This document shows, piece by piece, positions 10,583-14,109 of a stretch of 64,000 bases of DNA. Below the pieces are notes generated by a model, which did no database searches, was not told the DNA's origin, and worked only from the letters and a program-made list of their open reading frames with translations. Position 1 is the stretch's first letter. Each line of letters opens with the position of its first letter. Source of the stretch: Escherichia coli. Lineage in GTDB: Bacteria; Pseudomonadota; Gammaproteobacteria; Enterobacterales; Enterobacteriaceae. The translations under genes were made by a program, and so were the position numbers. Where the stretch lies: assembly GCF_013315695.1 (NCBI RefSeq), contig NZ_CP054353.1; one strand, written 5' to 3'.

Positions 10583-13015
10583 ATGAGTGTGATTGCGCAG
10601 GCAGGGGCGAAAGGTCGTCAACTGCATAAATTTGGTGGCAGTAGTCTGGCTGATGTGAAGTGTTATTTGCGTGTCGCGGGCATTATGGCGGAGTACTCTC
10701 AGCCTGACGATATGATGGTGGTTTCCGCCGCCGGTAGCACCACTAACCAGTTGATTAACTGGTTGAAACTAAGCCAGACCGATCGTCTCTCTGCGCATCA
10801 GGTTCAACAAACGCTGCGTCGCTATCAGTGCGATCTGATTAGCGGCCTGTTACCCGCCGAAGAAGCCGATAGCCTTATTAGCGCTTTTATCAGCGATCTG
10901 GAGCGCCTGGCGGCGTTGCTCGACAGCGGTATTAACGACGCGGTGTATGCAGAAGTGGTGGGCCACGGTGAAGTGTGGTCGGCGCGCCTGATGTCTGCGG
11001 TACTTAATCAACAAGGGCTGCCAGCGGCCTGGCTTGATGCCCGCGAGTTTTTACGCGCTGAACGCGCTGCGCAACCGCAGGTTGATGAAGGGCTTTCTTA
11101 CCCGTTGCTGCAACAGCTACTGGTACAACATCCGGGCAAACGTCTGGTGGTGACCGGGTTTATCAGCCGTAACAACGCCGGTGAAACGGTGCTGCTGGGG
11201 CGTAACGGTTCCGACTATTCCGCGACACAAATCGGTGCGCTGGCGGGTGTTTCCCGCGTAACCATTTGGAGCGATGTCGCCGGGGTATACAGTGCCGACC
11301 CGCGTAAAGTGAAAGATGCCTGTCTGCTGCCATTGCTGCGTCTTGATGAAGCCAGTGAACTGGCGCGTCTGGCGGCCCCCGTTCTTCACGCCCGTACTTT
11401 ACAGCCAGTATCCGGTAGTGAAATCGACCTGCAACTGCGCTGTAGCTACACGCCGGATCAAGGTTCCACGCGCATTGAACGCGTGCTGGCCTCAGGTACT
11501 GGCGCGCGTATTGTCACCAGCCACGATGATGTCTGTTTGATTGAGTTTCAGGTGCCCGCCAGTCAGGATTTCAAACTGGCGCATAAAGAGATCGACCAGA
11601 TCCTGAAACGTGCTCAGGTGCGCCCACTGGCGGTTGGCGTACATAACGATCGCCAGTTGCTGCAATTTTGCTACACCTCAGAAGTCGCTGACAGTGCGCT
11701 GAAAATTCTCGACGAAGCGGGATTACCTGGCGAACTGCGCCTGCGTCAGGGGCTGGCGCTGGTGGCGATGGTTGGGGCGGGCGTAACCCGTAACCCGCTG
11801 CATTGCCACCGCTTCTGGCAGCAACTGAAAGGCCAGCCGGTCGAATTTACCTGGCAGTCCGATGACGGCATCAGCCTGGTGGCAGTACTGCGCACCGGGC
11901 CGACCGAAAGCCTGATTCAGGGTCTGCATCAGTCCGTCTTTCGCGCGGAAAAACGCATCGGCCTGGTATTGTTCGGCAAGGGCAATATCGGTTCCCGCTG
12001 GCTGGAACTGTTCGCCCGTGAGCAGAGCACGCTTTCGGCGCGTACCGGCTTTGAATTTGTGCTGGCAGGCGTGGTGGACAGCCGCCGCAGCCTGTTGAGC
12101 TATGACGGGCTGGACGCCAGCCGCGCGTTAGCCTTCTTCAACGATGAAGCGGTCGAGCAGGATGAAGAGTCGCTGTTCCTGTGGATGCGCGCCCATCCGT
12201 ATGATGATTTAGTGGTGCTGGACGTTACCGCCAGCCAGCAGCTTGCTGATCAGTATCTCGATTTTGCCAGCCACGGTTTCCACGTCATCAGCGCCAACAA
12301 ACTGGCGGGAGCCAGCGACAGCAATAAATATCGCCAGATCCACGACGCCTTCGAAAAAACCGGGCGTCACTGGCTGTACAATGCCACTGTCGGTGCGGGT
12401 TTGCCGATCAACCATACCGTGCGCGATCTGATCGACAGCGGCGATACCATTTTGTCGATCAGTGGGATCTTCTCTGGCACGCTCTCCTGGCTGTTCCTGC
12501 AATTCGACGGTAGCGTGCCGTTTACCGAGCTGGTGGATCAGGCGTGGCAGCAGGGCTTAACCGAGCCTGATCCGCGTGATGACCTTTCCGGCAAAGACGT
12601 GATGCGCAAGCTGGTGATTCTGGCGCGTGAAGCGGGTTACAACATTGAACCGGACCAGGTGCGTGTTGAATCACTGGTGCCAACCCATTGCGAAGGTGGA
12701 AGCATCGACCATTTCTTTGAAAATGGCGATGAACTTAATGAGCAGATGGTACAACGGTTGGAAGCGGCCCGTGAAATGGGGCTGGTGTTGCGCTACGTGG
12801 CGCGTTTCGATGCCAACGGCAAAGCGCGAGTAGGCGTGGAAGCGGTGCGAGAAGACCATCCGCTGGCATCACTACTACCGTGCGATAACGTCTTTGCCAT
12901 CGAAAGCCGCTGGTATCGCGACAACCCGCTGGTGATCCGCGGGCCAGGTGCAGGGCGCGATGTCACCGCCGGGGCGATTCAGTCGGATATTAACCGTCTG
13001 GCGCAGTTGTTGTAA
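10583..13015 (+). CDS. metL: Bifunctional aspartokinase II / homoserine dehydrogenase II
   Basis: 810-aa ORF 2 bp after metB; aspartokinase N-domain and homoserine dehydrogenase C-domain. Confidence 0.93.
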   Translation: MSVIAQAGAKGRQLHKFGGSSLADVKCYLRVAGIMAEYSQPDDMMVVSAAGSTTNQLINWLKLSQTDRLSAHQVQQTLRRYQCDLISGLLPAEEADSLISAFISDLERLAALLDSGINDAVYAEVVGHGEVWSARLMSAVLNQQGLPAAWLDAREFLRAERAAQPQVDEGLSYPLLQQLLVQHPGKRLVVTGFISRNNAGETVLLGRNGSDYSATQIGALAGVSRVTIWSDVAGVYSADPRKVKDACLLPLLRLDEASELARLAAPVLHARTLQPVSGSEIDLQLRCSYTPDQGSTRIERVLASGTGARIVTSHDDVCLIEFQVPASQDFKLAHKEIDQILKRAQVRPLAVGVHNDRQLLQFCYTSEVADSALKILDEAGLPGELRLRQGLALVAMVGAGVTRNPLHCHRFWQQLKGQPVEFTWQSDDGISLVAVLRTGPTESLIQGLHQSVFRAEKRIGLVLFGKGNIGSRWLELFAREQSTLSARTGFEFVLAGVVDSRRSLLSYDGLDASRALAFFNDEAVEQDEESLFLWMRAHPYDDLVVLDVTASQQLADQYLDFASHGFHVISANKLAGASDSNKYRQIHDAFEKTGRHWLYNATVGAGLPINHTVRDLIDSGDTILSISGIFSGTLSWLFLQFDGSVPFTELVDQAWQQGLTEPDPRDDLSGKDVMRKLVILAREAGYNIEPDQVRVESLVPTHCEGGSIDHFFENGDELNEQMVQRLEAAREMGLVLRYVARFDANGKARVGVEAVREDHPLASLLPCDNVFAIESRWYRDNPLVIRGPGAGRDVTAGAIQSDINRLAQLL

Positions 13016-14109
13016 TCCTGAGCCAGAGAAAGCAGTATTTGCGTAACGCGCCCTGCGGAAAGCGGGGTGCTGTGAGTAAATACTGCTTGTTTATGTAGCC
13101 AGTCGATAAAATGTCTGCTGGTTGCGAAAGAGAGCATTACAGCTTTGCTGTTATTTCCGCCCGTTAATGCACATACCATTTTACGATTTTTGCCCTGAAC
13201 CCAGAGTTGCCACTGATTTTTCCACCAGCCGTGATAAGTTTTTCCCTGAAAACGCCAGGGCGTATTATCGGTATAGTCAGCTATTTCCTCTTCAATAAAC
13301 CAAATTTCACCTTGCTGTTGGCGAAACAGTTCTGCCCAGGCCGTAATAATCGCACCTCTTAAAAAACACTCGTGTGAAATTACATGTGTTTTTACTGTAG
13401 GGAATAAAATATTCAGTACTCTAAAATGCCCGTGCGCTGTGATAACCGGACGCAGAATAACACCTTTAGCATTGCGTTTGAGCGCTGCGCTGCCATACTG
13501 AATTTCATCAAACTGACTGCGGCGTAGAAATTGTGCTTCGCGCATATCAACGCGTTGTACAATATTACTCTCGTGTAACTCTGGTTCTGCATTTCCTCTG
13601 TATCGATAATACAGACTTTCTCCAGCCTGATGCTGCGTGTAATTAGTAGAAAGATGAAGAATATTACCGCGAAGAGCATCAAAACTGATTAAAACATACA
13701 GTTTCTGCCCGCCGCTGGCTCCCTGAAATGGCACCAGAAGAGCAACCGTTTCGATTATTTCAGGAGGCGTTATTTCTTTCTGATATTGTTTAGGTGTCCA
13801 GACTTTTTTGCAGTTACGACATTGAATGCGTTGCGACCCCTGTGGATTGTGGCCATAACAAATCGTCTTTGTGCCATAACATACCGGGCAGAAATGACCT
13901 TTCTCAGTTGCAAAAGTAGATAAGTGAACTGACAACCAGTCACGAAATTGCTGTTCGTCAAACAACGGCGGGTAACTTCCACATGCCCGACAGTGCAGTG
14001 CCGGATAACCCAGTCGATAGTCTGGCCAGCTGTAATCTGTCGAAGTTGGCTGCCCTAAATTACGGCAACCAAACGACTTGCAGGCATTAATCGTAAACAG
14101 AGTCGACAT
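12979..14109 (-). CDS. Hypothetical cysteine-rich (multi zinc-ribbon) protein, accessory; function unknown
   Basis: 376-aa ORF in visibly AT-richer DNA; N-terminal 100 aa carry C-x4-C, C-x2-C, C-x2-C and C-x2-C pairs including CPVC...QRIQCRNCKKVW, which resembles the IS1 InsA / IS1595-type transposase zinc ribbon; no recognisable catalytic motif; 3' end overlaps metL by 37 bp. Confidence 0.55.
   Translation of the reverse strand: MSTLFTINACKSFGCRNLGQPTSTDYSWPDYRLGYPALHCRACGSYPPLFDEQQFRDWLSVHLSTFATEKGHFCPVCYGTKTICYGHNPQGSQRIQCRNCKKVWTPKQYQKEITPPEIIETVALLVPFQGASGGQKLYVLISFDALRGNILHLSTNYTQHQAGESLYYRYRGNAEPELHESNIVQRVDMREAQFLRRSQFDEIQYGSAALKRNAKGVILRPVITAHGHFRVLNILFPTVKTHVISHECFLRGAIITAWAELFRQQQGEIWFIEEEIADYTDNTPWRFQGKTYHGWWKNQWQLWVQGKNRKMVCALTGGNNSKAVMLSFATSRHFIDWLHKQAVFTHSTPLSAGRVTQILLSLAQDYNNCARRLISD

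Follow-up and report, generated by a model that had tools for sequence, protein, structure and literature searches.

A putative regulator of nucleotide scavenging, derived from an IS1-related transposase and encoded next to a 5'-nucleotidase gene in Escherichia coli

The window analysed here, a stretch of 64,000 nucleotides from Escherichia coli (contig NZ_CP054353.1 of RefSeq assembly GCF_013315695.1), comprises the enterobacterial metJ-metB-metL ... metF-katG region. Between metL and metF lie two divergently oriented genes. One of them (positions 12979-14109, minus strand; ATG start, stop codon included) codes for a 376-aa IS1-related protein with a degenerate DDE (Asp-Asp-Glu) catalytic site and is annotated in RefSeq as a hypothetical protein (WP_000105527.1). 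The other (14242-15795, plus strand) encodes a 5'-nucleotidase, a periplasmic metallophosphatase of the UshA/YfkN type with 517 aa and a signal peptide. An earlier note on this DNA had pointed to the cysteine-rich open reading frame (ORF) and its IS1/IS1595-like zinc ribbon, and named three possible identities: a DNA-binding protein domesticated from a transposase, a regulator acting on the divergent nucleotidase gene, or a member of a novel family. Here we describe the protein family, the promoter region separating the two genes, and the evidence that the protein may be a domesticated IS1-related transposase which binds DNA and, together with CRP, regulates nucleotide scavenging.

A conserved gene pair between metL and metF

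The two divergent genes make up the gene content of an island (13017-16026; 3,010 bp) that stands in place of 197 bp between metL and metF in E. coli K-12 and has a G+C content of ~44%, versus 55-58% in its flanks. The K-12 counterpart begins straight after the metL stop codon, and the final 12 codons of the ORF (12979-13015) are antisense to the final 12 codons of metL. Of 5,426 complete E. coli genomes, about a third contain the same 3.3 kb (1,837 at a coverage of at least 80%). A second E. coli allele with ~81% DNA identity, present in 569 genomes, is carried by a larger island with the gene order metL, Tsx, nucleotidase, nucleotidase, ORF, divergent nucleotidase, metF; in this other allele (locus L015), the ORF has a different end and is followed by two nucleotidase genes and the Tsx gene. 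The island of the window looks like a deletion derivative of the larger one. The latter was described in extraintestinal and avian pathogenic E. coli (e.g., BEN2908) as encoding Tsx and three UshA-like enzymes (2026 genome paper, PMC12928451). Literature searches found no other paper that concerns the locus, and none on the 376-aa protein or its family.

Klebsiella, Citrobacter, Enterobacter and many Vibrio species carry the family gene as well. When one genome per species was scanned, with a 13-sequence family alignment as the query, 55 loci in Enterobacteriaceae and Vibrionaceae were obtained. In 52 of them, a 5'-nucleotidase gene is directly upstream of the family gene; of the remaining three, one is at the end of a contig, one is on a short contig and one is a partial match. 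This linkage is kept despite a clade-specific gene order. In Enterobacteriaceae, the nucleotidase and family genes are divergent, whereas in Vibrionaceae and Psychromonas they share one strand, with the nucleotidase gene ahead of the family gene and usually 40-130 bp between them. The nucleotidase is the better conserved of the two proteins (88% versus 58% in Klebsiella pneumoniae). It shares a signal peptide, a metallophosphatase domain and a 5'-nucleotidase C-terminal domain with UshA and YfkN. Its scores stay under the cut-offs of all named equivalogs (e.g., 151 versus 600 bits for UshA), and it forms a separate subfamily. Distant relatives of the 376-aa protein (22-31% identity) are encoded next to other genes of the nucleotide/nucleoside-scavenging theme, namely an operon for a porin, a class B acid phosphatase and phosphodiesterase II; a sulfatase/phosphodiesterase gene, with Tsx and nucleotidase genes nearby; a radical-SAM gene together with a sulfatase gene; or a gene for a purine/uridine nucleoside phosphorylase.

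The gene is immobile and evolves under purifying selection at a fixed chromosomal site. Its median copy number in the 5,426 E. coli genomes is one (maximum two; one in the window), and a search for inverted or direct repeats flanking the ORF or the two-gene module, one of the checks proposed earlier, revealed only short pairs at chance level. The module is located at metL-metF in nine genera: Escherichia, Pseudocitrobacter, Citrobacter, Kosakonia, Phytobacter, Klebsiella, Superficieibacter, Kluyvera and Salmonella (S. arizonae). In comparisons with the window gene, the ratio of non-synonymous to synonymous substitution rates (dN/dS) amounts to 0.11-0.19 for all unsaturated values of dS (0.2-1.6). 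Furthermore, all 17 orthologues examined are intact (371-391 aa), with none of the frameshifted remnants that the earlier note had considered, and more than 20 residues are near-invariant across relatives with 19-80% identity. This is a real, conserved gene family which was previously uncharacterised.

Zinc ribbons and a degenerate transposase core

The family alignment comprises 52 full-length relatives with 19-80% identity. In the protein of the window, Cys residues are found at positions 10, 15, 40, 43, 74, 77, 97 and 100, and also at 84, 248, 313 and 369. The first eight, which form pairs, are conserved in 41-52 of the 52 relatives; C84 is not conserved. They belong to two N-terminal zinc ribbons. 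The first one (13966-14088, minus strand; residues 8-48, with N8, C10, K11, C15, C40 and C43) has its characteristic residues kept in 48-49 relatives and contains strands at residues 26-30 and 37-40 in the structure model; it is family-specific and has no InsA counterpart. The second one (13798-13890, minus strand; residues 74-104, with C74, C77, C97 and C100), quoted in the earlier note as FCPVCYGTKTICYGHNPQGSQRIQCRNCKKVW (residues 73-104), is homologous to the ribbon of IS1 InsA. Indeed, an hhalign comparison of the family profile with InsAB' covered InsA residues 4-87, i.e. the ribbon and the helix-turn-helix, at a probability of 96.4% (E = 1e-9), and BLASTP of window residues 74-104 against InsA 8-39 gave E = 1e-4. 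The window protein itself stays under the thresholds of the curated ribbon models (21.3 bits for NCBIfam IS1_IS1595_Zn, cut-off 28; E = 0.11 for Pfam Zn_ribbon_InsA), whereas relative P0141 reaches 34.3 bits, above the ribbon-model threshold, and nine of the 52 family members match Zn_ribbon_InsA at E <= 0.001. None of the 52 matches Zn_ribbon_IS1595 at this level (six do at E <= 0.1), and DDE_Tnp_IS1595 has no match in any of them. A sequence search of the PDB returned only generic compositional matches of C2H2 fingers to the Cys-rich N-terminus.

In 44 of the 52 relatives the ribbon is followed by a helix-turn-helix segment of 51-94 residues. A Vibrio relative modelled independently (predicted local distance difference test, pLDDT, 94.0) has the same fold as the window protein, with three additional helices (residues 107-123, 127-134 and 138-166) that connect ribbon and core in the manner of InsA and complete an IS1-like layout. 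The helix-turn-helix is a feature of the family which the enteric clade has lost by deletion.

Residues 105-376 have no match in Pfam, NCBIfam, PHROGs, PADLOC or PDB sequences. The structure model of the window protein (pLDDT 94.5; predicted template modelling score, pTM, 0.93) has an RNase H-like core of the DDE transposase/integrase type (13321-13758, minus strand; residues 118-263), with T121 on beta1, R220-P221 after beta4 and H246-E247 after beta5; R197, D201, Y205 and H228 are conserved in this core as well. It is followed by a family-specific C-terminal part (12982-13320, minus strand; residues 264-376) which consists of a four-stranded sheet bearing an invariant GWWxxxW motif (W295, W296, W300) and of a helical bundle that closes with a YN367 motif. 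The best match of the model among solved structures is a transposase of the Mutator/IS256 family.

The catalytic positions were taken from the secondary structure of the model and not from a residue-level superposition. Only three columns, D144, D201 and E247, are acidic in at least 60% of the 52 sequences. The beta1 position expected for the first Asp is occupied by Thr in 41 and by Ser in eight sequences (T121 in the window), and the end of beta4, where the second Asp is expected, reads R/K-P, with Pro in 50 sequences (R220-P221 in the window). E247 is acidic in all 52 and sits together with H246 just past beta5, in the place expected for the catalytic Glu. According to the model, the first two catalytic carboxylates are lost and E247 alone is kept of the DDE triad. 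D144, on the beta2-beta3 hairpin, can be read as the non-catalytic Asp common to integrase-type folds, by comparison with YDSLRK of IS1. R197, Y205, P221, H228, H246, E247, W296, W300 and N367 are near-invariant in the alignment. As a matter of speculation, the vestigial active-site region (R197, D201, Y205, H228, H246, E247) may serve dimerisation or the sensing of nucleotides or nucleosides.

The top-scoring transposase models for the relatives are those of IS1 and IS1249, with every score below cut-off; for NF033558 (IS1 transposase, cut-off 100 bits), the window protein scores 20.5 and its relatives 13-35 bits. The family shares with InsA/InsAB' the homologous CxxC...CxxC ribbon and, in most members, the subsequent helix-turn-helix. 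However, it is encoded by a single ORF with no -1 frameshift, possesses an extra N-terminal ribbon as well as the C-terminal Trp-rich sheet and helical bundle, retains only the Glu of the DDE triad, has no terminal repeats, and is single-copy at a fixed locus. Membership as an IS1 or IS1595 transposase fails on the missing triad, the missing ends, the lack of multiple copies and the scores below cut-off, and the protein is best described as an IS1-related domesticated derivative.

Most of what the earlier note had read from the ORF is borne out by these data: the four Cys pairs, the IS1-type character of the ribbon (sub-threshold in the window protein, above threshold in relatives) and the suggestion of a domesticated, transposase-derived protein, which the InsA-like N-terminus, the fold, the immobility and the purifying selection support. 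Its statement that the C-terminal 270 residues contain no recognisable transposase core is true at the level of sequence, where no curated family covers residues 105-376, but has to be revised at the level of structure, where the model has an RNase H-like fold. The proposal of a novel family agrees with the finding that no confident full-length match to a characterised family exists in Pfam, NCBIfam, PHROG or PADLOC.

Relatives carry in the AlphaFold DB the names 'cytoplasmic protein', 'IS1 family transposase' and 'lactate dehydrogenase', which appear to be without functional basis and can now be corrected. Entries Q8Z9N7, A0A8X6EQK0 and A0A828N132, distant 'cytoplasmic proteins' of Salmonella and E. 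coli (~24% identity, 299-375 aa), have the same fold.

Promoter elements and proposed function

In an alignment of the divergent intergenic regions of 22 enteric loci, conserved blocks are separated by variable sequence. One of the blocks is an upstream element (14114-14140) which begins 5 nt upstream of the ATG of the ORF and which we consider a candidate operator. It starts with CACCAACGATTT (14114-14125), within an inverted repeat CAACGA-N10-TCGTTG (14117-14138), and occurs once per locus. Another is a predicted CRP site kept across genera, whose core TGTGATTGCTCTCACA (14167-14182) matches TGTGA-N6-TCACA perfectly. Two further conserved blocks are putative -10 hexamers: TAATGT of the nucleotidase promoter (14203-14208, plus strand), 31 bp from the CRP centre and with a predicted start near 14216, and CAAAAT of the ORF promoter (14139-14144, minus strand), 33 bp from the same centre, abutting the upstream element and with a predicted start near 14132. 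Both spacings would correspond to class II CRP geometry. A canonical -35/-10 pair is not present in the intergenic region, which fits activator-dependent promoters.

The regions upstream of the nucleotidase genes of Vibrionaceae do not align with the enteric ones, but nevertheless share their layout, with aCCAACnCAwwwGGwAACT, a CRP-like site and a -10 hexamer. The distance from the start of CAAC to the CRP core downstream of it is exactly 50 bp at 35 of the 36 enteric loci and at 14 of the 17 loci from Vibrionaceae. As a control, ~0.8 Mb of fetched DNA was scanned for CRP-like sites with no more than two mismatches. Among 638 such site-orientations, 54 have a CAAC at the 50-bp offset, and all 54 adjoin a family gene, whereas the other 584 yielded no such case, with about two expected by chance. 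Loci with non-nucleotidase targets are among the 54 (L008, sulfatase/phosphodiesterase; L013, nucleoside phosphorylase operon), as is L004, where the remnant of an insertion sequence stands between the promoter and the porin/phosphatase operon. As the layout is found at loci with varied target genes, the element travels with the family gene and not with a given target.

Several other identities of the upstream element were considered and rejected. As a second CRP site, its left half-site would match TGTGA at only one of five positions; by inspection it has neither the TGCAA octamer of a CytR box nor the CTGTCA repeat of a PhoB box; and terminator calls like that for the inverted repeat at 14117-14138 occur as often as expected from shuffled sequence, with no gene upstream on that strand. 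Rfam has no match in 12900-16200. In five Vibrio/Enterovibrio loci (L059, L060, L061, L067, L068), a palindrome GCAAACG(A/T)TTGC of the PurR/CytR type of the LacI family is located between the CCAAC element and the CRP-like site, ~15-30 bp upstream of the latter (near 4290-4310), and suggests an additional purine or nucleoside control of the nucleotidase promoter. The ends of IS1A (L014 97-864) read GGTGATGCTGCCAACTTACTGATTTAG and GGTAATGACTCCAACTTATTGATAG, the family element reads CCAACGATTT and, in L052, CCAACTGATTTTG. The IS1 left end, GCCAACTTACTGATTT, compared with operators of the form CCAAC(T)GATTT, hints via the shared CCAAC...GATTT at a descent of the operator from an IS1-type end; the shared string is too short to test, and we regard this as a lead only.

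The promoters deoP2, cdd and tsx-p2 of E. coli, which serve nucleoside uptake and catabolism, are controlled by CRP and CytR. The putative nucleotidase promoter resembles them in its predicted CRP site near -41.5 and in a candidate site for a second protein near -93, about five turns of the helix further upstream. It differs in that the upstream position is taken by the CCAAC element, with no second CRP site and no CytR octamers, and in that the proposed regulator linked to it is transposase-derived rather than of the LacI family. More generally, an activator bound near -92 of a CRP-dependent promoter can synergise with class II CRP, and in nucleoside promoters of the deoP2 type a second CRP site is found at that position.

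We propose, with a probability of roughly 0.55, that the 376-aa protein is a domesticated IS1-related transposase which binds DNA and regulates nucleotide scavenging jointly with CRP. It would be a sequence-specific regulator of the adjacent 5'-nucleotidase gene, binding the CCAAC element by its zinc ribbons and, in the relatives that have one, also by the helix-turn-helix; in the larger islands, the same protein would also govern the additional genes for nucleotidases and Tsx. Measured from centre to centre, the element is ~51 bp upstream of the CRP site, which places its centre near -92 of the putative class II CRP-dependent promoter. Given this placement and what is known of CRP promoters, we commit ourselves to co-activation with CRP, a model in which scarcity of preferred carbon would turn on nucleotide scavenging. 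The element of enterobacteria directly adjoins the putative -10 of the ORF and covers its predicted start and ribosome-binding site, so binding is predicted to shut off ORF expression, i.e. to cause autorepression. A precedent is InsA, the zinc-finger and helix-turn-helix protein of IS1, which is itself a repressor and binds the ends of IS1 (PMC12428005). The case for the origin of the protein and for its genomic link to the nucleotidase is strong and that for the mechanism moderate; the direction of regulation and any ligand are guesses. As to the earlier suggestion that the ORF regulates the divergent nucleotidase gene, the linkage and the family-specific promoter element speak for it, while regulation as such is deduced from genomic context and promoter anatomy.

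Several points weigh against this proposal. The window protein and the whole enteric clade have a 10-residue linker in place of the helix-turn-helix segment, and DNA binding by InsA requires both the zinc finger and the helix-turn-helix (PMC12428005). In the fold comparison, IS1 is no closer than IS6 or IS256, and an hhalign comparison of the C-terminal profile with the single InsB sequence was not significant (probability 0.2%), with beta1-beta3 placed as in the alignment by eye. E247, H246 and H228 are nearly invariant, and a non-canonical catalytic or metal site may be located there. Another factor could bind CCAAC, and the ribosome-binding site of the ORF could be part of the cause of the conservation of the element in enterobacteria. 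Moreover, the compared loci share ancestry, so that the counts overstate the number of independent events. Finally, the genome paper that names the nucleotidases and Tsx of the island is silent on the 376-aa ORF (PMC12928451).

A less likely explanation is that the transposase-derived protein contributes to nucleotide scavenging in a non-regulatory way, e.g., as a cytoplasmic nucleic-acid- or nucleotide-binding protein, as an enzyme using H228/H246/E247/R197, or as a post-transcriptional factor acting on the nucleotidase mRNA, and that CCAAC belongs to some other factor. The near-invariant residues (two His, one Glu and one Arg) that surround the former active site and the lack of the helix-turn-helix in the enteric clade would agree with such a role; adjacency alone does not demonstrate regulation, and the inverted repeat could also form a hairpin. 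However, the partners vary by clade (nucleotidase, acid phosphatase, sulfatase, nucleoside phosphorylase) and the CCAAC/CRP layout stays with the family gene, which is typical of a transcription factor rather than of an enzyme-specific helper. Furthermore, the partners are periplasmic, whereas the 376-aa protein has no signal peptide, and its conserved ribbons are homologous to a known DNA-binding module. It is also conceivable, but highly improbable, that the protein and the nucleotidase act as a pair in defence, against phages or by degradation of nucleotide signals. The variable location of the island and a weak resemblance of the nucleotidase to a phage protein family of unknown function would suit this idea, but neither the ORF nor the nucleotidase has a PADLOC match, the nucleotidase is periplasmic with a signal peptide, and the neighbours are genes for Tsx, porins and nucleoside transport and catabolism; the predicted CRP control and the PurR-like box of some Vibrio loci point to nutrient scavenging as well.

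The transposase fold and the IS1-like N-terminus, the restriction of the low-G+C island to about one third of complete E. coli genomes, and the annotation of some relatives as 'IS1 family transposase' might also be taken as signs of an active, unusual transposase or recombinase with the nucleotidase as cargo, or of an enzyme that inverts or rearranges the promoter. This very improbable explanation is largely refuted by the absence of two of the three catalytic carboxylates throughout the family, by the single-copy state with no terminal inverted repeats at the same metL-metF site in nine genera, and by the score of 20.5 bits against an IS1 model cut-off of 100; in addition, the matches in many hundreds of E. 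coli genomes are full-length and collinear, with no inverted variants seen. Nor does the gene behave as a decaying insertion sequence remnant with no present function, to which the loss of the catalytic residues and of the helix-turn-helix and the 'hypothetical protein' annotation could be attributed; the low dN/dS, the 17 of 17 intact orthologues, the more than 20 near-invariant residues and the very confident predicted fold refute this.

A close parallel to a domesticated regulator of this kind in bacteria is TldR, the nuclease-dead TnpB-like repressor, which has likewise lost its catalytic residues, is fixed beside particular host genes, targets conserved promoters and is also present in Enterobacteriaceae (PMC10705468). 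TldR is of RuvC-type TnpB origin and RNA-guided, whereas the present family is of DDE origin and is proposed to recognise DNA by protein domains; neither an RNA family (Rfam) nor a guide-like repeat was found at the locus. The function of TldR has been shown experimentally, while that of the present protein is proposed. Plant FHY3/FAR1 are transcription factors that originate from Mutator-like DDE elements; they similarly combine an N-terminal zinc finger with an immobile transposase core and act at promoters, but come from another kingdom and another transposase superfamily, with no sequence relationship. Such conversions of transposases to regulators are well documented in eukaryotes, whereas the clear bacterial cases are, to our knowledge, the RNA-guided TnpB derivatives (TldR) and the tyrosine-type transposases of repetitive extragenic palindromes (REP).

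If the proposal is true, a protein-only DDE derivative with its own operator would be a new route for insertion sequences to seed regulatory networks. Two allelic forms of the gene exist in E. coli, about a third of whose complete genomes carry it, and the nucleotide-scavenging module is both widespread and unstudied. More tentatively, and rather less probably than not in our estimation, the whole IS1-derived, degenerate-DDE family (with clades in Enterobacteriaceae, Vibrionaceae, Morganellaceae and Psychromonas) may have been domesticated in Gammaproteobacteria as CRP-partner transcription factors which control a regulon for periplasmic scavenging of nucleotides and organophosphates. Their CCAAC operator, at a fixed distance of 50 bp to a class II CRP site, may itself go back to a terminal repeat of the IS1 type. 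This would be the first protein-only domestication of a DDE transposase as a regulator described in bacteria.

Island variants and further loci

A REP-like palindrome (GCCGGATTAAGCG...CGAATCCGGC) lies within the 197 bp that E. coli K-12 has between metL and metF (L002 770-966). For metL of the window, identity to K-12 is only 93.6% in the 3' part (12248-13016), as compared with 96.4% for metF and its flanks; this contrast is consistent with recombination, or with a divergent lineage, at the island junction.

Two diverged paralogous modules occur in the single genomes of E. coli SCPM-O-B-8794 (L019, L026), Escherichia sp. MOD1-EC7003 (L020, L045) and Citrobacter sp. wls619 (L037, L046). One module of each pair is located at metL-metF, and the other elsewhere, together with Tsx, extra nucleotidases and a CCAAC/CRP promoter of its own.

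Locus L016 (NZ_CP168949.1 5047285-5060185) consists of several truncated pseudogenes in a row, which stem from unrelated loci (bla, capsid, casA, tuf and a fragment of the family gene), and looks like an assembly artefact in that record. E. coli record H46, in which the gene is found at a different site, was ignored, being a mosaic of truncated pseudogenes and probably a misassembly. In L004, a remnant of an IS3-type integrase domain (5250-5600) lies between the CCAAC/CRP promoter and the operon for the porin, acid phosphatase and phosphodiesterase II, and a 46-residue N-terminal nucleotidase fragment (7620-7757) is found downstream of the family gene.

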